NCBI RefSeq assembly: GCF_053078305.1
Contig: NZ_CP166879.1
Length of the DNA stretch: 64,000 bases
Strand: one strand, 5' to 3'
The notes below the pieces were generated by a model. The model was not told where the DNA came from. It did no database searches and saw only the letters and a program-made list of their open reading frames with translations. Position numbers and translations under genes: made by a program. Every line of letters begins with the position of its first letter. Position 1 is the first letter of the stretch. Positions 4,699 through 46,256 of the stretch are shown piece by piece.

Positions 4699-5694
4699 AT
4701 GAAAAAGAAAAGACCCGTACTTCAGGATGTGGCTGACCGTGTAGGCGTGACCAAAATGACGGTCAGCCGTTTTTTACGCAACCCGGAGCAGGTTTCCGTC
4801 GCTCTACGCGGCAAGATTGCCGCGGCTCTTGATGAACTGGGCTATATTCCCAATCGTGCGCCCGATATCCTCTCTAACGCCACCAGCCGGGCGATTGGCG
4901 TCCTGTTACCTTCTCTCACCAACCAGGTTTTCGCGGAAGTATTACGCGGAATCGAAAGCGTCACCGACGCGCACGGTTATCAGACCATGCTGGCCCACTA
5001 CGGTTATAAACCGGAAATGGAGCAAGAACGTCTCGAATCAATGCTCTCATGGAATATCGACGGACTTATCCTCACCGAACGTACCCACACGCCGCGCACC
5101 TTAAAGATGATTGAAGTGGCGGGGATTCCCGTGGTGGAACTGATGGACAGCAAGTCGCCATGCCTCGATATTGCCGTCGGTTTTGATAACTTTGAAGCGG
5201 CACGCCAGATGACCGCCGCCATTATTGCTCGCGGGCATCGCCATATTGCCTATCTCGGCGCACGTCTCGACGAACGTACTATCATCAAACAGAAGGGATA
5301 CGAACAGGCGATGCGGGATGCAGGCCTGGTGCCGTATAGCGTGATGGTTGAGCAATCTTCTTCTTACTCTTCCGGTATTGAACTGATTCGCCAGGCGCGG
5401 CGGGAATATCCGCAGCTGGATGGCGTGTTCTGTACTAATGATGATCTGGCGGTCGGCGCGGCGTTTGAATGTCAGCGTCTGGGGTTAAAAGTTCCTGACG
5501 ATATGGCGATTGCCGGTTTCCACGGTCATGACATTGGTCAGGTGATGGAGCCACGACTTGCGAGCGTGCTGACGCCGCGTGAGCGGATGGGCAGTATTGG
5601 CGCTGAACGCCTTCTGGCGCGTATTCGTGGCGAATCTGTGACACCGAAAATGTTAGATTTAGGTTTCACCTTGTCACCGGGCGGATCTATTTAA
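4699..5694 (+). CDS. gntR: LacI-family transcriptional repressor of gluconate genes
   Basis: 331-aa ORF; N-terminal HTH (VTKMTVSRFL) and periplasmic-binding-fold C-terminus; directly upstream of gntK-gntU. Confidence 0.93.
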   Translation: MKKKRPVLQDVADRVGVTKMTVSRFLRNPEQVSVALRGKIAAALDELGYIPNRAPDILSNATSRAIGVLLPSLTNQVFAEVLRGIESVTDAHGYQTMLAHYGYKPEMEQERLESMLSWNIDGLILTERTHTPRTLKMIEVAGIPVVELMDSKSPCLDIAVGFDNFEAARQMTAAIIARGHRHIAYLGARLDERTIIKQKGYEQAMRDAGLVPYSVMVEQSSSYSSGIELIRQARREYPQLDGVFCTNDDLAVGAAFECQRLGLKVPDDMAIAGFHGHDIGQVMEPRLASVLTPRERMGSIGAERLLARIRGESVTPKMLDLGFTLSPGGSI

Positions 5695-5772
5695 GCCCAC
5701 AAATTTGAAGTAGCTCACACTTATACACTTAAGGCACGGATGGATATTGCTTCTGATATTGTCCGGCCGGAG

Positions 5773-5803
5773 AATGTTACCGATAACAGTTACCCGTAAC
5801 ATT
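5773..5803 (+). promoter_or_regulatory. GntR operator pair in the gntKU promoter (aatgttaccgataacagttacccgtaacatt)
   Basis: Two inverted ATGTTACCC...GGGTAACAT-like half-sites; the same motif recurs upstream of gntT at 43925-43946. Confidence 0.7.
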
Positions 5804-5832
5804 TTTAATTCTTGTATTGTGGGGGCACCACT

Positions 5833-6360
5833 TTGAGCACGACTAACCATGATCACCACATTTACGTCTTGATGGGCGTATCGGGCAGCGGCAAATCTGC
5901 GGTCGCAAGTGAAGTGGCGCATCAACTTCATGCCGCGTTTCTTGATGGCGATTTCCTCCATCCACGGCGCAATATCGAAAAAATGGCGTCTGGCGAACCG
6001 CTGAATGACAACGATCGCAAACCGTGGTTGCAGGCGCTGAACGACGCCGCGTTTGCTATGCAGCGCACTAATAAAGTGTCGCTGATCGTCTGTTCTGCAT
6101 TGAAAAAACACTATCGCGACTTGCTGCGTGAAGGTAATCCGAATCTCTCTTTCATCTACCTGAAAGGCGATTTTGATGTGATTGAAAGCCGCCTGAAAGC
6201 GCGCAAAGGCCATTTCTTTAAAACCCAAATGTTGGTGACGCAGTTTGAAACGCTGCAGGAGCCGGGTGCGGACGAAACCGATGTACTGGTGGTGGATATC
6301 GATCAACCGCTGGAAGGTGTTGTGGCAAGCACCATTGAGGTTATTAAAAAAGGCAAATAA
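5833..6360 (+). CDS. gntK: Gluconokinase (thermoresistant)
   Basis: P-loop GVSGSGKS; start placed at the TTG giving MSTTNHDHHIYVLMG (175 aa), not the upstream in-frame ATG of the ORF track. Confidence 0.88.
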   Translation: MSTTNHDHHIYVLMGVSGSGKSAVASEVAHQLHAAFLDGDFLHPRRNIEKMASGEPLNDNDRKPWLQALNDAAFAMQRTNKVSLIVCSALKKHYRDLLREGNPNLSFIYLKGDFDVIESRLKARKGHFFKTQMLVTQFETLQEPGADETDVLVVDIDQPLEGVVASTIEVIKKGK

Positions 6361-6363
6361 GTA

Positions 6364-7704
6364 GTGACTACATTAACGCTTGTTTTAACAGCAGTAGGGT
6401 CTGTTTTACTGCTGCTGTTTTTAGTCATGAAGGCGCGTATGCACGCTTTCCTGGCTTTAATGGTGGTGTCCATGGGGGCTGGCCTTTTTTCCGGTATGCC
6501 GCTCGATAAAATCGCAGCGACGATGGAAAAAGGGATGGGAGGCACCCTCGGCTTCCTGGCGGTGGTTGTCGCCCTGGGAGCTATGTTTGGCAAGATCTTA
6601 CATGAAACCGGCGCAGTCGATCAGATTGCCGTCAAAATGCTTAAATCCTTCGGTCACAGCCGCGCGCATTATGCCATCGGCCTTGCGGGGCTGGTCTGTG
6701 CGCTACCGCTGTTCTTTGAAGTGGCGATTGTTCTGCTGATTAGCGTTGCTTTCTCAATGGCGCGCCACACCGGTACGAACCTGGTGAAGCTGGTAATCCC
6801 ATTATTCGCAGGCGTGGCGGCAGCGGCGGCGTTCCTGGTGCCAGGGCCAGCGCCAATGCTGCTGGCATCGCAGATGAACGCCGATTTTGGCTGGATGATC
6901 CTGATTGGCCTGTGTGCGGCAATTCCGGGAATGATTATTGCCGGGCCGCTGTGGGGTAACTTCATCAGCCGTTACGTTGAGCTGCATATTCCTGACGACA
7001 TCAGCGAGCCGCATCTCGGCGAAGGCAAAATGCCGTCCTTCGGATTCAGCCTGTCGCTGATCCTGCTGCCGCTGGTGCTGGTGGGGCTGAAAACCATTGC
7101 CGCGCGTTTTGTGCCGGAAGGCTCTACCGCTTACGAATGGTTCGAGTTTATTGGTCATCCGTTTACCGCGATTCTGGTTGCTTGTCTGGTAGCGATTTAT
7201 GGCCTGGCAATGCGTCAGGGCATGCCAAAAGACAAAGTGATGGAGATTTGCGGTCACGCGCTGCAACCGGCGGGGATCATTCTGCTGGTGATTGGTGCGG
7301 GCGGCGTGTTCAAACAGGTGCTGGTTGACTCTGGCGTAGGTCCGGCACTGGGCGAAGCGTTAACCGGCATGGGCCTGCCGATTGCTATCACCTGCTTCGT
7401 GCTGGCAGCTGCAGTGCGCATCATTCAGGGGTCTGCCACCGTTGCCTGTTTAACGGCGGTGGGGCTGGTGATGCCGGTCATTGAACAACTGAACTACTCC
7501 GGTGCGCAAATGGCGGCGCTGTCGATTTGTATCGCCGGTGGTTCGATTGTTGTCAGCCACGTTAACGACGCCGGTTTCTGGTTGTTCGGTAAATTTACCG
7601 GCGCGACCGAAGCCGAAACGCTGAAAACCTGGACCATGATGGAAACCATCCTCGGCACTGTTGGTGCCATCGTTGGGATGATTGCGTTCCAGCTGTTGAG
7701 TTAA
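6364..7704 (+). CDS. gntU: Low-affinity gluconate:H+ symporter (GntP family)
   Basis: 446-aa polytopic membrane protein; strongly similar to gntT (42454..43770) in the same window; 3 nt after gntK. Confidence 0.92.
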   Translation: MTTLTLVLTAVGSVLLLLFLVMKARMHAFLALMVVSMGAGLFSGMPLDKIAATMEKGMGGTLGFLAVVVALGAMFGKILHETGAVDQIAVKMLKSFGHSRAHYAIGLAGLVCALPLFFEVAIVLLISVAFSMARHTGTNLVKLVIPLFAGVAAAAAFLVPGPAPMLLASQMNADFGWMILIGLCAAIPGMIIAGPLWGNFISRYVELHIPDDISEPHLGEGKMPSFGFSLSLILLPLVLVGLKTIAARFVPEGSTAYEWFEFIGHPFTAILVACLVAIYGLAMRQGMPKDKVMEICGHALQPAGIILLVIGAGGVFKQVLVDSGVGPALGEALTGMGLPIAITCFVLAAAVRIIQGSATVACLTAVGLVMPVIEQLNYSGAQMAALSICIAGGSIVVSHVNDAGFWLFGKFTGATEAETLKTWTMMETILGTVGAIVGMIAFQLLS

Positions 7705-7717
7705 TTACTGCGACAAA

Positions 7718-7759
7718 TTACTGCGAGCTTGCTCGCAGTAATTCATTTCTCTTTTCTCC
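7718..7759 (+). terminator. Rho-independent terminator-like hairpin after gntU
   Basis: Arms ttactgcgagc / gctcgcagtaa around a tt centre, followed by the U-rich ttcatttctcttttctcc. Confidence 0.55.
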
Positions 7760-7843
7760 TCTCTTCATCTTTTTGATCTCTCTCGCAAATTTACCTGCAA
7801 ATAATCCGTTCTAATCACTGCCTAAAGATCGCAGGAGATAAAG

Positions 7844-9940
7844 ATGGAAAAGCACGCAGCTGAATTGCTTTTACAGCGGATGTTAGGAAATACCACCGCT
7901 ACTTTCAGGGAAGGGCAATGGGAAGCCATAGACGCGGTGGTGAACCAACGGCGAAAACTGCTGGTTGTCCAACGCACTGGCTGGGGGAAAAGTGCTGTGT
8001 ACTTCATCGCCAGTAAAATCTTCCGCGATCGCGGCGCTGGCCCGACAATTATCATCTCTCCTTTGCTTGCCCAGATGCGTAACCAGGTTGCCGCCGCTGA
8101 ACGGTTAGGTATTACGGCTGAAACGTTGAATTCTACAAACAGGGAAGAATGGCAGCGCATTAGCGATAAGTTGCTGCAAGGTGCGGTCGATTGCTTGCTG
8201 GTTTCCCCGGAACGTTTGGCAAACCAGGACTTTATCGAAACGGTTTTATATCCTATAGCCGATCGTATTGGCTTGCTTGTGGTCGACGAGGCGCACTGCA
8301 TCTCTGATTGGGGCCACGATTTTCGCCCGGATTACCGACGTATATTAGATATTTTGCGCCAACTACCTGCGAATACCCCTGTTCTGGGTACAACCGCGAC
8401 AGCGAATAACCGTGTCGTTGAGGATATCCGTCAGCAATTGGGTGACATTGTGATTCAGCGTGGAACGCTGGCTCGCGAAAGTTTGGCGCTTGATGCCTTA
8501 GTCTTAGGTGAACAGTCATCCCGTCTGGCATGGTTAGCAACGGTTATCCCTCAGTTTTCCAAATCGGGAATTGTTTATACCCTGACTACTCGCGATGCCG
8601 AACTTGTCGCCGAGTGGTTAAGGAAAAATGGTATCAGTGCATTTGCTTACTACAGCGGCGTGACTTGTGAAGGCGCGGAAGATTCTAATACTGCCAGGGA
8701 ATATCTGGAGCAGGCGTTGCTGGCAAATAAAATTAAAGTGCTGGTTGCGACAACGGCGCTGGGAATGGGCTTTGACAAACCGGATTTGGGGTTTGTTATT
8801 CATTACCAGATGCCAGGTTCGATAGTTGGTTACTACCAACAGGTGGGGCGTGCCGGTCGCGGTATCGATTCTGCTGTTGGCATACTGCTTTGCGGCAGTG
8901 AAGACCGTGCTATTCATAAATTCTTCCGTGAAAGCGCCTTTCCTGCGGAGGCGCAAATTCATGAATTACTCAACGTACTTAGCGTGAATGACGGTCTTAC
9001 CTTACGAGGCATTGAACAACGGACGAATCTCCGTTATGGGCAAATAGAAAAAGCACTGAAATTATTGGTAGCTGAAAATCCATCGCCTGTGGTGTATACC
9101 GAGAAATTATGGCGCAGAACAATTGTCAGTTTTTCTCCTGACCATGAACGAATTAACCATTTGATGAATCAGAGAAAAAGTGAGCTGGCAGACGTTGAAA
9201 GCTATATCACGACCAAGGAGTGCAAAATGCAATTTCTGCGCCGCGCACTCGATGAGCCAGGTGCCGAACATTGTGGTAAATGTAGCAGTTGTCTTCAGCA
9301 TCCGTTGTTGTCGCCCGACATTGATAGCGGCTTACTCCATGCGGCAAACTTATTTATTAAACACGCTGACCTGTCATTAAATCTCAATAAACAGGTGGCA
9401 GCTGGGGCTTTTACGCAATACGGATTTAAAGGGAACTTGCCTGCGATTTTACAAGGATCTACGGGGCGAATCCTTTCTCGTTGGGGAGATTCCGGGTGGG
9501 GAAAGCAGGTAGCACAGGAGAAAAAAACGGGGCGATTCAGTGATGAACTGGTGGAGGCATGTGCGGAAATGGTTCGCCAACGCTGGAATCCGCATCCTGA
9601 ACCAACCTGGGTATGCTGCGTTCCTTCATTACAGCACCTCGACCTGGTTCCTGATTTTGCCCGGCGACTGGCGGCGAAACTTGGCTTACCTTTTATTGAT
9701 GCCATTGAAAAAGTCGTGGACAATCCACCGCAGAAAATGCAGCAAAACCGTTTCCACCAGTGTCAAAATCTCGACGGGGCGTTTGTGATTACCCCTCCTT
9801 TGATGCCTGGTCCGGCGTTGCTGGTTGACGATATCGTGGATTCTGCATGGACGCTGACAGTTCTGACAGCACTGTTACGCCAGGCAGGTTGCCCGACGGT
9901 TTATCCTCTTGCCCTTGCTTCTACCTCGGTAAAAAATTGA
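7844..9940 (+). CDS. RecQ-family superfamily-2 DNA helicase with Zn-binding module, fused to a C-terminal ComF/GntX-like phosphoribosyltransferase-fold domain (apparently degenerate)
   Basis: 698 aa. Walker A QRTGWGKS; RecQ-type motif II VVDEAHCISDWGHDFRPDY; later helicase motifs TATA and QQVGRAGRG; four-Cys cluster CKMQ...HCGKCSSC. The last ~150 aa parallel the GntX C-terminus (NLDGAFVI...ALLVDDIVDSAWTLTVLTALLRQAGCPTV vs GntX NLKNAFRL...MVIVDDVVTTGSTVAEIAQLLLRNGAATV). Good SD (gcaggag) 8 nt upstream. I do not recall this gene in K-12. Confidence 0.8.
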   Translation: MEKHAAELLLQRMLGNTTATFREGQWEAIDAVVNQRRKLLVVQRTGWGKSAVYFIASKIFRDRGAGPTIIISPLLAQMRNQVAAAERLGITAETLNSTNREEWQRISDKLLQGAVDCLLVSPERLANQDFIETVLYPIADRIGLLVVDEAHCISDWGHDFRPDYRRILDILRQLPANTPVLGTTATANNRVVEDIRQQLGDIVIQRGTLARESLALDALVLGEQSSRLAWLATVIPQFSKSGIVYTLTTRDAELVAEWLRKNGISAFAYYSGVTCEGAEDSNTAREYLEQALLANKIKVLVATTALGMGFDKPDLGFVIHYQMPGSIVGYYQQVGRAGRGIDSAVGILLCGSEDRAIHKFFRESAFPAEAQIHELLNVLSVNDGLTLRGIEQRTNLRYGQIEKALKLLVAENPSPVVYTEKLWRRTIVSFSPDHERINHLMNQRKSELADVESYITTKECKMQFLRRALDEPGAEHCGKCSSCLQHPLLSPDIDSGLLHAANLFIKHADLSLNLNKQVAAGAFTQYGFKGNLPAILQGSTGRILSRWGDSGWGKQVAQEKKTGRFSDELVEACAEMVRQRWNPHPEPTWVCCVPSLQHLDLVPDFARRLAAKLGLPFIDAIEKVVDNPPQKMQQNRFHQCQNLDGAFVITPPLMPGPALLVDDIVDSAWTLTVLTALLRQAGCPTVYPLALASTSVKN

Positions 9941-11142
9941 TGAATCTTTCAGCCAATGCACAAGCAACTCTCCTGCTAACCAGCGATTTTTCTCGCGCGG
10001 CGGCGAGTGAGTATAAACCTCTTAGTAATAGTGAATGGGGGAAGTTTGCATTATGGCTGAAGCACCAACGTATCAGTCCCGCCGAGCTTCTGGTGCCGCA
10101 ACCGCAAGAGAAACTTACAGGCTGGAGCGATCCGCGTATTTCTCAGGAGCGTATTCTTGGCTTGCTGGCGCGTGGTCATAGTCTGGCGTTGGCGGTAGAT
10201 AAGTGGCAACGCGCCGGTTTATGGATCTTAACCCGCGGAGATGCTGATTATCCCGTTCGCTTGAAAAACCGATTGCGAACGGATGCACCTCCCGTTTTAT
10301 TTGGCTGCGGGAATAAAGCATTACTGCAAGCGGAAGGTATGGCGATTGTTGGCTCGCGAGATGCTCCGACTGACGATTTGCGCTATACCCAACAACTGGC
10401 CGCGAAACTGGCCCAACAGGGGATTTGCGTTATCTCTGGTGGTGCGCGAGGTATTGATGAATGTGCAATGGCGTCGGTACTGGAGGCCGGGGGAACTGCC
10501 GTTGGCGTATTAGCTGATAGCTTGTTAAAAACGAGTACGTTAGTGAAATGGCGTGAAGGGCTTATAGCAGGCAACCTGGTGTTGATTTCGCCGTTTTACC
10601 CAGAGGTACGTTTCACCGTCGGCAATGCGATGGCGCGAAATAAATATATTTATTGCCTTGCTGAAAGCGCAATGGTTGTACGTGCGGGAATGACCGGTGG
10701 AACGATAACCGGGGCGATGGAGGCATTAAAACATCAGTGGCTGCCTGTGCAGGTTAAACCAAATCAGGATATGCAATCAGCCAATTCACGATTAGTAGAA
10801 AATGGGGCGTCATGGAGTGCTGAACAGGCTGAGAATGTGACGATCAGACTGCCAGACGTTCCTGGGCTGATGTATGACAGAGCACTCCGTAACGCTCAAC
10901 CAGAACTGTTTTCGCTGCATGAAGATGACGCAAATTACGCAGTAATGCCCGCGTATACGCCTGTCGATTTTTATCAACTCTTTGTGGCGGAACTGGCGAT
11001 CCTTGCAAAGGAATCGATAAGTATTGAAAGGCTGGCGTCTTGTACTGGTTTAACCATCGAACAAATTAGTGTGTGGCTGAACCGCGCAGAAGAAGAGGGA
11101 AGGGTTATCCGATTGGGCGAAGGTCATTATCAGTTCAGGTAA
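9940..11142 (+). CDS. DprA/Smf-like (SLOG-superfamily Rossmann) DNA-processing protein with N- and C-terminal extensions
   Basis: Start taken at the ATG overlapping the helicase stop by 1 nt (ttgATGaat), not the upstream in-frame ATG of the ORF track. DprA core motifs MAIVGSRDAPTD, ISGGARGIDECAMASVLEAGG, ISPFYPEVRF, ARNKYIYCLAESAMVV. About 90-aa C-terminal tail, possibly a winged helix. Confidence 0.8.
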   Translation: MNLSANAQATLLLTSDFSRAAASEYKPLSNSEWGKFALWLKHQRISPAELLVPQPQEKLTGWSDPRISQERILGLLARGHSLALAVDKWQRAGLWILTRGDADYPVRLKNRLRTDAPPVLFGCGNKALLQAEGMAIVGSRDAPTDDLRYTQQLAAKLAQQGICVISGGARGIDECAMASVLEAGGTAVGVLADSLLKTSTLVKWREGLIAGNLVLISPFYPEVRFTVGNAMARNKYIYCLAESAMVVRAGMTGGTITGAMEALKHQWLPVQVKPNQDMQSANSRLVENGASWSAEQAENVTIRLPDVPGLMYDRALRNAQPELFSLHEDDANYAVMPAYTPVDFYQLFVAELAILAKESISIERLASCTGLTIEQISVWLNRAEEEGRVIRLGEGHYQFR

Positions 11143-11145
11143 TAA

Positions 11146-11181
11146 AACAGGTGCCGCGTCTGGTTGTGTGCAGCACCTGTT
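11146..11181. terminator. Imperfect inverted repeat (acaggtgc...gcacctgt) between the convergent DprA-like gene and yhgN
   Basis: Complementary arms about 8 bp each, seen in the sequence; no strong U-tract. Confidence 0.35.
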
Positions 11182-11187
11182 TGAACC

Positions 11188-11781
11188 TTACCCCTTCATC
11201 CACATTCGAATGCCGTCGAGGAACATCTGGGTTGCCATCATCACCAGAATCAATCCCATCAGGCGTTCAAGTGCGTTCACCCCTTTCTCGCCCAGCAGAC
11301 GTAAAAATAGCGAAGACTGTAGCAGGATGACAAAGGTGCCGCCCCAGGCCAGCAGCAGAGCAATCACCAGATGTCCCATCTGATTCGGGTACTGATGAGA
11401 CAACAACATCAGCGTGGCGAGAATAGTTGGCCCGGCGACCAGCGGAATTGCCAGCGGCACGATAAATGGCTCTTCACCTGCCGGAAGCCCGCTGCTATTT
11501 CCTGAAGCGCTGGGGAAAATCATCTTAATGGCAATTAGAAACAGAATGATGCCGCCAGAAATGGAGACGGTTTCTGCTCGTAGGCTGAGAAATGCCAGAA
11601 TTTTCTCACCCGCAAACAGGAACACCAGCATCACCAGGAGAGCAATAAGCAACTCTCGCACCATGATTGCCCGCCGTCTTTTCGGTTCAGTATGTTTCAG
11701 TACGGACATGAAAATAGGTAGGTTTCCGAGCGGATCCATAATCAGGATCAATAAAACTGCTGCAGAAATGATTTCATTCAT
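11188..11781 (-). CDS. yhgN: MarC-family inner-membrane protein
   Basis: 197-aa hydrophobic ORF; synteny next to asd. Confidence 0.88.
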   Translation of the reverse strand: MNEIISAAVLLILIMDPLGNLPIFMSVLKHTEPKRRRAIMVRELLIALLVMLVFLFAGEKILAFLSLRAETVSISGGIILFLIAIKMIFPSASGNSSGLPAGEEPFIVPLAIPLVAGPTILATLMLLSHQYPNQMGHLVIALLLAWGGTFVILLQSSLFLRLLGEKGVNALERLMGLILVMMATQMFLDGIRMWMKG

Positions 11782-22833: not shown

Positions 22834-24351
22834 ATGGACAGAATGATGCCAAATAGAAAATGGATTTTGACCTCGCTGATAATGACTTTTTTCGGCATCC
22901 CCATACTGGCGCAATTTTTGGCAGCGGTTGTTGCCATGCTGGGTGTCGGGCTTACCGGTATTATTGAAGTTTGTAATATCCTTATCACGCCAACAATTTA
23001 TCTTCTACTCAACGTCTTTATGCTGACGCTGGGGGCGATAATAATATTTTTCTCTGGTCGCGTGTGGGCCGGTGATAGCGCGCCAGAAAACAGAGAAATA
23101 GCCGTCTGGCGGCAATGCTTTTTTCTCTTACCCGCGCTATTAACCCTGGTTGGCTGGATAATCACGCTACATCTGGCAGATTATCAATTTCGCCAGATGG
23201 GAGCTGGTTGGTTGGCAAACCTTATGCTTCCCTGGTTGGGCGTTTTTTTAGTCTCATTAGTGGGTGGTGAGTACTGGTGGATGGTCATTATTCCCGTTGG
23301 GGTGCATATCAGTTTTTCGCTGGGATACGCCTGGCCGACCAGATATCCTTTATCCGGCACGTCCGGACTACGTTGCCGTAACTTACTCCTGTTTCTACTT
23401 CTCTTACTTGGTATTGTCGCCGGGTATCAGGCCCATTTATATAAGCAGCAAAATCCTGGTGTCGGTGTACGCGAAAATATTGATATCTGGGCCTGGCGAC
23501 CCGATAAACTCAATAATCGACTGACGCCGCTGCGTGGCAAACCGCAAATTCAGTTTAGGCAAAACTGGCCGCGAATCGATGGCGCCACGGCTGCGTACCC
23601 AATTTATGCTTCTGCATTTTATGCATTAAGTGTAATACCAGAGGATTTTCACGTTTGGGATTATCTGGAAAACTCTCGTACGCCAGAAGCATATAACAAA
23701 ATCGTTAAGGGCGATGCTGATATTATTTTCGTGGCGCAACCTTCCGGTGGGCAAAAAAAACGTGCAAAGGAATCTGGTGTCACTTTGCTGTACACCCCCT
23801 TTGCCCGTGAAGCATTCGTTTTCATCGTCAATGCGGATAATCCGGTTAATTCCCTGACTGAACAACAGGTGCGTGACATTTTCAGTGGTGCAATTACCAA
23901 CTGGCGTACTTTTGGCGGTAACGATCAGGAGATCCAGACCTGGCAGCGCCCGGAAGACTCTGGCAGCCAGACAGTGATGCAATCACAGGTCATGAAAAAT
24001 GTCCGCATGATCTCGCCGCAGGAAACGGAAGTGGCAAGCGTGATGGAGGGAATGATTAAAGTCGTTGCCGAATACCGTAATACAAACAACGCAATAGGCT
24101 ATACCTTCCGCTATTACGCGACGCAAATGAATGCTGATAAAAATATAAAATTGCTAGCGATTAACGGTATTACACCGACGGCGGAAAACATTCGCAACGG
24201 CAAATATGCGTACATCGTCGATGCATTTATGGTGACGAGAGAAAATAAAACGTCAGAAACACAAAAACTGGTCGAATGGTTTTTAACGCCGCAGGGGCAG
24301 AGTCTGGTAGAAGATGTGGGATATGTGCCGCTGTATAAAATCTTACCTTAA
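22834..24351 (+). CDS. Membrane-anchored protein: N-terminal polytopic domain (~6 predicted TM helices) plus C-terminal periplasmic solute-binding-protein-like domain (PBP superfamily, possibly phosphate/oxyanion type)
   Basis: 505-aa ORF. First ~200 aa hydrophobic; C-terminal part has SBP-like segments (DGATAAYPIYASAFY, FVAQPSGGQ, LLAINGITPTAENIRNGKYAY). K-12 carries only a pseudogene (yzgL) at this position as far as I recall. SBP subfamily is a guess. Confidence 0.6.
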   Translation: MDRMMPNRKWILTSLIMTFFGIPILAQFLAAVVAMLGVGLTGIIEVCNILITPTIYLLLNVFMLTLGAIIIFFSGRVWAGDSAPENREIAVWRQCFFLLPALLTLVGWIITLHLADYQFRQMGAGWLANLMLPWLGVFLVSLVGGEYWWMVIIPVGVHISFSLGYAWPTRYPLSGTSGLRCRNLLLFLLLLLGIVAGYQAHLYKQQNPGVGVRENIDIWAWRPDKLNNRLTPLRGKPQIQFRQNWPRIDGATAAYPIYASAFYALSVIPEDFHVWDYLENSRTPEAYNKIVKGDADIIFVAQPSGGQKKRAKESGVTLLYTPFAREAFVFIVNADNPVNSLTEQQVRDIFSGAITNWRTFGGNDQEIQTWQRPEDSGSQTVMQSQVMKNVRMISPQETEVASVMEGMIKVVAEYRNTNNAIGYTFRYYATQMNADKNIKLLAINGITPTAENIRNGKYAYIVDAFMVTRENKTSETQKLVEWFLTPQGQSLVEDVGYVPLYKILP

Positions 24352-24453
24352 GCAGGATAATCATATGGATACCGGTATTATTCGCCTGAACGCGGCCAAT
24401 GCTCGTTTTGTTTATCAACCGTTTACACGCAATCAGCGGAAGAGGGAGTAATT

Positions 24454-25230
24454 ATGCAATGCAGCCCCGCCATGCAGGCATTAATTGAGCAGATTTATCA
24501 TATTTTTCGTCGTTATCCGGTGCCGTCGAGATTTCATGTTTGTTGTCCTTACTGCTTTAGCGAAGAACAACAACAAGCCTTAAGAGGGGTTTCACTGCGT
24601 GCCATACCTTTCCCTTTATTACATGCCTGGGGAACAAGTATTGGTCCTACCCCGCAAAATGATGATGAGATTCGCTATTTATTACCCAGATTGTTTGAAT
24701 TTATTTCCCAAAGGCAATTTCCAGGCATTTATGAAGGCTGCTGTTTACAGAGAATAGCAGAGGCAGATAACCAGAACTGGCGAACGGACGAACTACAAAT
24801 AATTAGCGATTTCGCCTATTTATATATGCAGGATTGGGTGTCGGCTAAGGAGGTCGTAGAACTGGAAATAATATTAGAAATGTTTTATCGCGGTGGTATA
24901 AAGATTGAACCCTTACTTGACGCCATTATGTCCATTTCCGGTTACTGGCCGACGGCGTCTATGGCATGTTTGCTCTGGCGTAACAGTAAAGAATACGTCG
25001 AAAATAGCGATTTTGAGCAGAGTGATGATAATAAAACTATTACCACTCAAATTAATACCTGGGCTAGAAATAATCATCCTTTTCTGAAAGAAAGAGCGCG
25101 ACAAGCGATTGAGAACCCACTAAAACAGCCTGAACCAATGACAGAATATCAAGTCTGGGAAGACGACTGGATGATTGATGAGTGTTTATGCGCGATGTAT
25201 GACGCATCACCCGAACAATCAGGACAATAA
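24454..25230 (+). CDS. Hypothetical soluble protein, Cys-containing N-terminus (CCPYC); no family recognised
   Basis: 258-aa ORF, AT-richer than flanking core genes; its stop is 2 nt before the next ORF's start. Confidence 0.5.
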   Translation: MQCSPAMQALIEQIYHIFRRYPVPSRFHVCCPYCFSEEQQQALRGVSLRAIPFPLLHAWGTSIGPTPQNDDEIRYLLPRLFEFISQRQFPGIYEGCCLQRIAEADNQNWRTDELQIISDFAYLYMQDWVSAKEVVELEIILEMFYRGGIKIEPLLDAIMSISGYWPTASMACLLWRNSKEYVENSDFEQSDDNKTITTQINTWARNNHPFLKERARQAIENPLKQPEPMTEYQVWEDDWMIDECLCAMYDASPEQSGQ

Positions 25231-25232
25231 AG

Positions 25233-25823
25233 ATGAATAAAATCAGACTTTATATTTATCCGCTATATCTCGGCTTTGTTATTGTGCCGTTGTTGGTGTG
25301 GCCGACGGTGGTTGTTGTTGGTATCACACTGAGTTTTCTAATGGAGATGCTGTTCTCAAATTCGTTCATGCACAGGCGTATTTCCCTTCTGGAATTACAA
25401 CTTGGGTTATTGGCTGAATATACGCTTTTGTTCTGCGCCATATGTTGCGTTGGTTGGCAATTTGCTCGCATAACTCAATCTGAATTGAAAAGCAAACTGC
25501 ATTATTGGCTGGTATTTGTACCAGTTTATTTCTGGTTGCTCCTGTGGAATATCATTTTCTATGTCGCGCCAGCGAAAATTGCATTGCTGGAAAATATGCG
25601 CAGTTTCTTTCTGACCGTTGTCTGGCTCCCACTGAATTTTTCGCCATTTTGGTCTCAACCGTGGATTGACTTTGTCGGTCCAATAAGCGCACAGCTTGGT
25701 TTTGCGTTGGGATATTATTGCCAGTGGCGTAGCAAAAATAGAAGCCAGAGGAAGAAGTGGGGCGAGTGGGTAATGTGCTTAAGTTTTGTTACGTTGGGTA
25801 TGATGGCGTGGGCTTTGCGGTAA
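25233..25823 (+). CDS. Hypothetical integral membrane protein (4-5 predicted TM helices)
   Basis: 196-aa hydrophobic ORF tightly coupled to the preceding ORF; AT-rich. Confidence 0.5.
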   Translation: MNKIRLYIYPLYLGFVIVPLLVWPTVVVVGITLSFLMEMLFSNSFMHRRISLLELQLGLLAEYTLLFCAICCVGWQFARITQSELKSKLHYWLVFVPVYFWLLLWNIIFYVAPAKIALLENMRSFFLTVVWLPLNFSPFWSQPWIDFVGPISAQLGFALGYYCQWRSKNRSQRKKWGEWVMCLSFVTLGMMAWALR

Positions 25824-25876: not shown

Positions 25877-25975
25877 GCCTGATGCGGCGTGAACGCCTTA
25901 TCAGGCCTACAAAATCATGCAAATTCAACATATTGCATAAACCACGTAGGCCTGATAAGCGTAGCGCATCAGGCA
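25877..25975. repeat. BIME: two inverted REP sequences (gcctgatgcggcgtgaacgccttatcaggcctac ... gtaggcctgataagcgtagcgcatcaggca)
   Basis: Canonical enterobacterial REP consensus (GATGCGGCG ... GGCCTAC) read directly; intergenic, downstream of glpD. Confidence 0.85.
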
Positions 25976-32702: not shown

Positions 32703-33734
<1,032 letters not shown>

Positions 33735-33783
33735 AATCCCTCCCGGATCAGACTCATCAGTGTGACTATCCGGTAGAGGTAAA

Positions 33784-34269
33784 TTACTCCAGAGTAATGA
33801 GATACAGTAAGGTAAGTGACTGGAATGGTGAAGGTACAAAGGCATACTTCAGATAGAAATTGCGTACTGAATCGTCTAAGGCATGAACAATAAGCGCACG
33901 AACCCCTACCTGTTGAGCTATGGACATTGTGCGATAGACTGCATCTTTCAACAATGCGACGCCCAACCCTTTACCTGCCCAGGCTTGATCAATTGCCAGT
34001 CTGCCTAATACGACAACAGGCAACGATTCGGGAGCATTACGTCGCATGGCTCCAGGGGCCAAATTACGTTGAATACTGCCTGTAGAAAGGCAGTAATAGC
34101 CGATTACCTGGCGGGTATTGGCAATACAGATAACGTAAACACGAGACAGACCGGAGCTGTGATTTTTTAATGCTTTCTTTTTTAGCCATTCATTCATCCC
34201 GTGATCGGAACAGCAAAAGTCAGCCAGATTATGTTCAGACGTTAGGGGAGTAGGAGCCGTTATTCCCAT
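33784..34269 (-). CDS. GNAT-family acetyltransferase toxin (TacT/AtaT/ItaT/KacT-like; predicted aminoacyl-tRNA acetylating toxin)
   Basis: 161 aa; acetyl-CoA binding motif QAWAGKGLGVALL; start codon lies inside the last codons of the upstream DUF1778 ORF. I do not recall this pair in K-12. Confidence 0.75.
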   Translation of the reverse strand: MGITAPTPLTSEHNLADFCCSDHGMNEWLKKKALKNHSSGLSRVYVICIANTRQVIGYYCLSTGSIQRNLAPGAMRRNAPESLPVVVLGRLAIDQAWAGKGLGVALLKDAVYRTMSIAQQVGVRALIVHALDDSVRNFYLKYAFVPSPFQSLTLLYLITLE

Positions 34270-34544
34270 GGCGATTTACGATTCATCAACGCGTTAATTT
34301 TGGCCTGACGCTCAGCAGTGATGGGGGCGTCCAGGGCAGCCAGAAACGCATCGTATTGCTCGTCATCAAGGATGAATAGTCGTTGATCTAATAAGATGTC
34401 TTGCGCTTCACGGCATGCGGCATCCAGCATAAAATCAGTGCGCGATTTTGCGACCAGATTCGCTGCCATATCAATCAGGTCACGCTGTGAGGCTTTCGCT
34501 CTGATATTGATTGGCGCTTCTTTGCTTTCCGGTTTCATATTCAT
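34260..34544 (-). CDS. DUF1778-type (ribbon-helix-helix) antitoxin partnered with the GNAT toxin
   Basis: 94 aa; INIRAKASQRDLIDMAANLVAKSRTDFMLDAA is the typical DUF1778 N-terminus; upstream of and overlapping the toxin ORF by 10 nt. Confidence 0.75.
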   Translation of the reverse strand: MNMKPESKEAPINIRAKASQRDLIDMAANLVAKSRTDFMLDAACREAQDILLDQRLFILDDEQYDAFLAALDAPITAERQAKINALMNRKSPWE

Positions 34545-34604
34545 GAGCCTGTAGTGCGATTTTATATACAGTATAAAGAGTGTACATAAAAACGCTATAC
34601 AAAC

Positions 34605-44764: not shown

Positions 44765-46256
<1,492 letters not shown>

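Follow-up and report, generated by a model that had tools for sequence, protein, structure and literature searches.

The gntU–yhgN intergenic region was analysed in a 64,000-nucleotide stretch of DNA from NCBI RefSeq assembly GCF_053078305.1, contig NZ_CP166879.1; this whole stretch is referred to below as the window. In comparison with Escherichia coli K-12 MG1655, a segment of 3,483 bp (positions 7705–11187) takes the place of the K-12 gntU–yhgN spacer and carries two genes, which are the already described RqlH–RqlI pair, equated in the literature with PsyrTA, and not a new discovery. The locus is very probably an intact E. coli rqlHI (= PsyrTA) allele, in which a toxin consisting of a helicase and a phosphoribosyltransferase (PRTase) domain is restrained by a DprA-like antitoxin, with abortive infection as the model for its action in defence. 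The original prediction, made from the letters of the sequence, had proposed the anatomy and the idea of a defence-like module, and both stood; its expectation of novelty did not.

Identity and domain composition of the two proteins

Both products were matched along their full length by the hidden Markov models (HMMs) of the PsyrTA family. The PADLOC PsyrT model aligned with residues 3–697 of the first protein over profile positions 5–687 of 689 (E=0, 1056.6 bits), and PADLOC PsyrA aligned with the second over positions 1–397 of 398 (5.1e-202). Besides these matches, the other features of PsyrTA membership were found, namely a RecQ core, a PRTase fold with a loop for binding phosphoribosyl pyrophosphate (PRPP), and an adjacent DprA-like gene on the same strand. 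All eight rqlH/rqlI primers used for reverse transcription PCR and quantitative PCR in the 2015 study of RqlHI (Russell & Mulvey; PMC4670107) mapped inside the two open reading frames (ORFs) with 0–1 mismatch and in the expected orientation; the 16S and frdA control primers of that study had no match at the locus. The DIVD motif at residue 663 of RqlH is the motif mutated in RqlH of strain F11, and the length of RqlI (400 aa) is that of F11 RqlI and of the IMG-annotated PsyrA of construct SG127. This construct was listed as 'PsyrTA, Escherichia coli STEC 1299' with a size of 3,485 bp (Millman et al., 2022, Table S2). It is colinear with window positions 7704–11188, its printed 5' end is identical at 392 of 399 nt, and its PsyrA is identical to RqlI of the window at 391 of 400 aa. 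The flagged insert had therefore already been cloned as a unit. The helicase-fused architecture, taken at first for a variant or something new, is that of PsyrTA/RqlHI itself. Since the name, the HMMs in both defence-finder tools, the dissection of 2015, and the phage screen of 2022 exist, the locus has little value as a discovery.

The RecQ-family assignment of the helicase, proposed beforehand, was borne out by Pfam matches to DEAD (2.9e-23) and Helicase_C (9.5e-13) and by NCBIfam recQ_fam, which passed its cut-off (248.9 vs. 219.8 bits). The structure of E. coli RecQ (1oyw) matched aa 7–351 only (7e-52). The canonical RecQ equivalog TIGR01389 was not reached (292 bits vs. a cut-off of 640), its match stopping at approximately aa 365, and no HRDC domain was found in RqlH with Pfam. 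The cysteines of the zinc-binding module (Cys460, Cys477, Cys480, and Cys483; pattern C-x16-C-x2-C-x2-C) were intact.

A single-sequence search with the C-terminal ~200 aa of RqlH gave marginal matches, all of them PRPP-binding enzymes, GntX among them. Since these matches were only marginal, we built a family profile for the domain: 1,615 homologues were retrieved from 1.84 billion proteins at E≤0.001, and 56 of them were cropped and aligned. Searched against the PDB, the 56-sequence profile produced 46 matches, all to the PRT family, with PRPP synthetase at the top (1.9e-6) in an alignment covering the loop LLVDD..DS.WT. Pfam Pribosyltran (PF00156) was detected in 33 of the 56 family members at E≤0.001. 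The AlphaFold2 model of the effector domain, based on the 56-sequence alignment, reached a predicted local distance difference test (pLDDT) score of 96.5 and a predicted template modelling (pTM) score of 0.91. The top Foldseek match of this model in the PDB was Helicobacter pylori ComF (7p0h), and the top 50 were all type I PRTases, in agreement with the ComF-like fold suggested for this domain. A full-length single-sequence AlphaFold2 model of RqlH had a mean pLDDT of 36.5 and was discarded. A confident model is now available for the effector domain of this helicase–PRTase.

RqlH also resembles DpdF, and the gene could be read as a stray DpdF-like part of a system for 7-deazaguanine DNA modification (Dpd). 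The matches to PADLOC DpdF models were strong (4.8e-91), including a 74-aa DpdF model that matched the C-terminus of the PRTase domain (7.9e-54); however, PsyrT scored better than every DpdF model (1056 vs. 304 bits). DpdF membership was dropped because NCBIfam DpdF gave 143 bits vs. a cut-off of 550 and because other dpd genes are absent from the neighbourhood, the neighbours being gntU and yhgN. We regard it as effectively refuted.

The DprA/Smf-like nature of the second protein, likewise foreseen, was supported by Pfam matches to DNA_processg_A (6.1e-50) and SLOG cluster4 (5.9e-11). In the PDB, RqlI matched DprA structures at ~9e-11 and ShosA (9vzo) at 6e-7. The canonical DprA/Smf equivalogs were not reached (TIGR00732, 100.4 vs. 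191 bits; PRK10736, 77 vs. 495 bits).

The TGA of rqlH (9938–9940) shares its A with the ATG of rqlI (9940–9942). This one-base overlap is consistent with translational coupling, as the original prediction had it. The second ORF offers two ATG codons, 9847 and 9940, both leading to the end at 11142. We placed the start of rqlI at 9940 since position 1 of the PsyrA profile aligns there and a length of 400 aa is given both in the literature and in IMG. In RefSeq/PGAP, the DprA-like gene is annotated from the upstream ATG at 9847 (locus L002, 8143–9438), which makes it 431 aa long and lets it overlap rqlH by 94 nt. Position 9940 is favoured by the profile, the IMG annotation, the 2015 paper, and the way the genes are arranged in distant homologues, so that RefSeq probably sets the start 31 codons too far upstream.

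Insertion site and variation among E. coli genomes

In K-12 MG1655, gntU and yhgN are convergent and adjacent, with a spacer of 56 bp. Homology with K-12 ends exactly at the gntU stop codon on the left and at the yhgN stop codon on the right, so that both the assumed K-12 arrangement and the proposed borders of the insert proved exact. The GC content of the insert is 49.4% vs. 52–54% in the flanks. No target-site duplication or terminal repeats were found at its borders. A perfect 16-nt inverted repeat links 7308–7323, inside gntU, with 11171–11186, directly at the insert's right border; its right arm is also part of the hairpin at the 3' end of the module. This repeat was examined and judged to be due to chance, with ~0.5 such pairs expected per 64 kb; chance is also probable because the right arm is not exactly kept in the allele of strain 131. 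The 3' hairpin itself probably functions as a bidirectional terminator. In the leader, a terminator-like hairpin with 13-nt arms (7716–7743) stands directly after gntU, and a consensus scan of these 139 bp revealed no sigma-70 consensus promoter.

The population sample comprised 5,426 complete E. coli genomes. rqlHI was present in 1,650 of them, always chromosomal, single-copy, and at gntU–yhgN, and the gntU/rqlH junction was likewise detected in 1,650 genomes. The K-12-type empty junction was found in 3,774 genomes. The two states together account for 5,424 genomes, that is, for all genomes with the locus, and the site is therefore strictly two-state and not a hotspot for variable cargo. We consider rqlHI in the E. 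coli chromosome to be a presence/absence polymorphism that is old, non-mobile, and fixed at gntU–yhgN. Such a clean two-state polymorphism is suitable for natural-variation or competition experiments. The wider distribution of the RqlHI/PsyrTA family is already in print.

Nucleotide identity to the strain 131 allele was 97–99% in the flanks, 98.8% in rqlI, 94.6% in rqlH, and 88.8% in the leader, the most divergent part of the module. Divergence along rqlH (compared with positions 5141–7237 of locus L005) was about twice that of the flanks and patchy (17, 2, 25, 3, 2, 7, 27… differences per 150 nt), which suggests mosaic recombination within the gene. Of the codon differences in rqlH, 85 were synonymous and 21 nonsynonymous. 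The allele differences fit a long residence at the locus, with recombination and purifying selection. Since the differences in rqlH are mostly synonymous and the gene is full-length with intact motifs, purifying selection on the toxin appears to have continued in most lineages.

Decayed copies were found as well. O157:H7 strain 86-24 (NZ_CP017251.1; locus L007, 5140–7264) carries an rqlH pseudogene and an intact rqlI; rqlH has lost 1 nt at window position 8359 and contains a 29-bp tandem duplication that follows window position 9630. Of the 1,650 genomes with the module, 292 have the duplication junction; those listed were O157:H7 or O157-like. These toxin pseudogenes call for caution in defensome statistics: a published survey found PsyrTA enriched in phylogroup E2, and the counts of defence-system surveys, those for E2 included, may include decayed O157 copies of rqlH. 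In isolate NRZ94505 (NZ_OZ501598.1; locus L006, 4552–6586), an ISEcp1–blaCTX-M-15 unit is inserted in rqlH, with Tn3 and IS26 remnants upstream. What is left is a PRTase-domain fragment, annotated as 'ComF family protein', plus an intact rqlI.

Toxicity, neutralisation, and role in defence

The published experiments on RqlHI (PMC4670107) demonstrated that RqlH alone causes growth inhibition, SOS induction, filamentation, and a higher mutation rate. Toxicity was lost upon deletion of the PRTase domain, with D663A, or with DIVD→EVME, and was neutralised by co-expression of RqlI. The two proteins co-immunoprecipitated only when the PRTase domain was present. RqlI required its N-terminal and DprA regions, and the predicted C-terminal helix-turn-helix (HTH) was dispensable, a 1–320 truncation still neutralising RqlH. 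rqlH and rqlI were co-transcribed. Deletion of the whole operon caused no defect in colonisation of the mouse gut, whereas deletion of rqlI alone was deleterious; a psyrA deletion construct could not be transformed (Millman et al., 2022). The RqlH homologue of Mycobacterium smegmatis, an active 3'-5' helicase according to PMC3378886, is the only one with demonstrated helicase activity. By orthology with F11, drawn from primer mapping and motif position, the window allele is predicted to be toxic and to be neutralised by RqlI.

In the mechanism that we propose, RqlH/PsyrT would be a RecQ-like 3'-5' helicase with the C-terminal PRTase-fold domain as the toxic effector, and unrestrained RqlH would lead to DNA stress, SOS induction, and filamentation. 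RqlI/PsyrA, produced from the same mRNA, would bind the PRTase domain and keep RqlH silent. The helicase and/or the DprA-like partner would sense an intermediate of phage or foreign DNA, upon which the hold of RqlI would be released, and the freed PRTase domain would consume or transfer PRPP and so block DNA replication of both cell and phage. Sensing of single-stranded DNA (ssDNA) by the module is a reasonable hypothesis. By analogy with ShosTA, the window allele may work as an abortive-infection-type defence, a proposition that we judge to be evenly balanced.

The original prediction had also compared the module with the helicase, ComF-type PRTase, and DprA of the natural-competence toolkit. 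This analogy had already been drawn in PMC4670107, whose authors detected no natural transformation in their isolates of extraintestinal pathogenic E. coli (ExPEC). Read in this way, the pair would be a housekeeping accessory of DNA repair, recombination, or uptake, in which a RecQ-like helicase acts with a DprA-like ssDNA loader. The bona fide RecQ-family core, the active M. smegmatis helicase mentioned above, the closeness of ComF as a solved fold to the effector, and the DprA domain at the core of RqlI are all compatible with such a role, but the toxicity of RqlH maps to the PRTase domain and not to helicase activity, and the module is missing from 70% of E. coli genomes, K-12 included. Moreover, the proteins score under the RecQ, DprA, and GntX equivalog cut-offs, and the genome keeps its own gntX (44765..45448, as predicted and in agreement with the K-12 map). 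A housekeeping role is thus very improbable.

As to the reading of rqlHI as a defence system, PsyrTA (= RqlHI) was listed among phage-defensive toxin–antitoxin systems and is included in the PADLOC/DefenseFinder models; the homologue of Bacillus sp. FJAT-29814 is marked 'v' for observed defence (Millman et al., 2022, Table S2). Distant pairs were found nested in defence operons. A conjugative IncF plasmid of E. coli (NZ_OX030731.1; locus L003, 9001–12518) has one such pair, with 60.7% helicase identity, in a type I restriction–modification (R-M) system, with hsdS on one side and hsdR on the other. Another, with 49% helicase identity, is carried by an Acinetobacter plasmid (NZ_CP090068.1; locus L004, 7998–11527), where it separates pglX from pglZ of BREX-1 and adjoins a DUF262 gene. 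In these pairs, the DprA-like gene is likewise directly downstream of the toxin gene. The survey of homologue neighbourhoods called for by the original prediction thus revealed a link to defence operons for the distant pairs, whereas the E. coli locus, present in 1,650 of 5,426 genomes, has no mobile or defence context.

A number of observations weigh against a defence role of the E. coli allele. In Table S2 of Millman et al. (2022), SG127, the clone from E. coli STEC 1299, bears the mark 'observed defense: x'. For E. coli NILS69, neither deletion of PsyrTA in the native host nor its expression in K-12 revealed detectable protection, and the expression in K-12 caused a growth defect. Judged by its context, E. 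coli rqlHI lies outside any defence island. As originally noted for integrases, transposases, and terminal repeats, no integrase or transposase ORF was found inside or next to the insert among the window ORFs and in the neighbourhood. No full-length RqlHI homologue was found in a phage collection. The 292 O157-type genomes retain the antitoxin gene but have a decayed toxin gene, a pattern that fits a dispensable toxin. A sequence search of the PDB returned no PsyrT structure. For the PRTase domain of PsyrT, neither a substrate nor an enzymatic activity is known to us.

E. coli rqlHI could instead be a toxin–antitoxin module without a defence role, a relic or addiction cassette fixed in the chromosome and undergoing slow decay in some lineages. 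Two independent phage screens of E. coli alleles were negative, and the locus is without mobile or defence-island context. Such a cassette would persist since loss of rqlI alone is harmful, whereas mouse gut colonisation was not impaired by loss of the whole operon. Its decay would be represented by the O157-type rqlH pseudogenes with intact rqlI and by the interruptions of rqlH, by ISEcp1 in isolate NRZ94505 and, per the literature, by an insertion sequence in Shigella sonnei 53G. However, the excess of synonymous over nonsynonymous differences in a full-length rqlH with intact motifs speaks for a maintained toxin; R-M and BREX operons contain members of the family, and protection against phages is known for one of them. 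The phage panels of the negative screens were limited, and SG127 had only the 139-bp leader with no detected sigma-70 promoter. We consider this explanation possible, if somewhat unlikely.

The structure of the leader, with no sigma-70 promoter found and a hairpin after gntU, is a caveat on the negative result obtained with SG127. It is conceivable, though doubtful, that the trigger or target of rqlHI is missed by standard coliphage panels (for instance a conjugative plasmid, a satellite, or a particular family of phages) or that the helicase-tethered PRTase acts directly on DNA or a DNA-bound nucleotide. In that case, the two negative screens would be due to poor expression driven by the leader or to a wrong choice of challengers. 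To our knowledge, PRTase chemistry on DNA or a DNA-bound nucleotide has not so far been reported from any defence system. We retain the reading of the locus as an rqlHI toxin–antitoxin allele with abortive infection as the model for defence. At the same time, the E. coli allele is tallied as a 'defence system' in surveys despite only negative phage data.

Features of the window and comparison with known systems

The coordinates of the features of the module are summarised in the table.

Table. Features of the rqlHI module and their positions in the window.
Feature	Position	Strand	Description or evidence
Leader	7705..7843	+	139 bp from the gntU stop to the rqlH start; Shine-Dalgarno-like GGAG just 5' of the ATG
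rqlH/psyrT	7844..9940	+	698 aa toxin, RecQ-family helicase with C-terminal PRTase-fold domain; PADLOC PsyrT
Superfamily 2 (SF2) RecQ-type helicase core, aa 20-357	7901..8914	+	Pfam, NCBIfam, and PDB matches
Walker A GWGKS, aa 46-50	7979-7993	+	Intact
DEAH, aa 148-151	8285-8296	+	Intact
Motif VI QQVGRAGRG, aa 332-340	8837-8863	+	Intact
RecQ-type zinc-binding module, aa 443-484	9170..9295	+	Weak Pfam RecQ_Zn_bind match, E=0.0031
C-terminal effector domain, type I PRTase fold, aa 490-698	9311..9937	+	Profile, Pfam, AlphaFold2/Foldseek
PRPP-binding loop LLVDDIVDSAWT, including DIVD663	9818-9853	+	Sequence
Published rqlH primers	9360-9379, 9637-9656, 9901-9920		Mapped within 7844..9940
rqlI/psyrA	9940..11142	+	400 aa DprA/SLOG-like antitoxin; PADLOC PsyrA
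DprA-type Rossmann/SLOG domain of RqlI, aa 89-292	10204..10815	+	Pfam, PDB
RqlI C-terminal tail, aa ~320-400	10897..11139	+	Putative winged-helix/HTH; faint Pfam HTH_26 match, E=0.35
Published rqlI primers	9949-9968, 10408-10426, 10703-10722		Mapped within 9940..11142
Hairpin	11145..11182	.	13-nt arms, 12-nt loop; between convergent rqlI and yhgN

Two further segments of the window are absent from K-12. The first, of 889 bp (33712–34600), lies between rtcA and malT and contains two ORFs on the minus strand, 33784–34269 and 34260–34544. They represent a second small toxin–antitoxin pair, in which a candidate GNAT acetyltransferase toxin is encoded downstream of a TacA-like antitoxin (Pfam TacA1, 1.2e-19). 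The second, of 2.7 kb (23069–25758), occupies the glgP–glpD interval, in which yzgL is the only gene of K-12. Three ORFs on the same strand (22834–24351, 24454–25230, and 25233–25823) encode a 505-aa membrane-anchored protein resembling phosphate-binding proteins of the PstS family, a protein of 258 aa, and a membrane-embedded-looking protein of 196 aa; no NCBIfam match was obtained for the latter two. Two small RNAs scored above the Rfam gathering score: RyhB (2437–2501, 83.1 bits) and ES036/CssrF (25911–25953, 39.3 bits), which is located just past the glgP–glpD segment.

Among known systems, ShosTA is the DprA-plus-PRTase defence system that the original prediction had alluded to, and PsyrTA is its helicase-fused sibling. 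In ShosTA, as in RqlHI, a PRTase-domain toxin is neutralised by a DprA-like antitoxin, and toxicity takes the same form of DNA damage and filamentation. ShosT toxicity requires PRPP binding and perturbs purine metabolism and DNA replication. ShosA models match RqlI at 4.2e-26. ShosT is, however, described as being without a RecQ helicase, whereas RqlH's PRTase domain is fused behind a complete one. The window pair is accordingly placed outside ShosTA by the full RecQ core in its toxin and by the scores of its antitoxin, 669 bits with PsyrA vs. 90 with ShosA.

The likeness to ComF/GntX is at the level of fold only: H. pylori ComF is the best structural match of the effector domain, and the GntX equivalog NF008616 was not reached (15.4 bits vs. 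a cut-off of 304). RqlI shares the DprA domain at its core with DprA/Smf of natural transformation but, as given above, falls short of the equivalog score (100 vs. 191 bits). In contrast to ComF and DprA, RqlH and RqlI act as a toxin and its inhibitor and not as an uptake pathway.

The window pair agrees with PsyrTA (Sberro et al., 2013; Millman et al., 2022), the family HMMs of which match both proteins full-length; the member with verified phage defence is that of Bacillus sp. FJAT-29814, and the E. coli construct was without observed defence. RqlHI of the ExPEC strains F11, CFT073, and 536 (PMC4670107) is the same operon, with rqlH followed by rqlI, overlapping stop and start codons, an RqlH of 698 aa, and the chromosomal context seen in other E. 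coli genomes. The differences are allelic only, the tie to F11 being based on primers, motif position, and lengths. Between the window and the strain 131 allele, amino acid identity is ~97% for RqlH and ~99% for RqlI.

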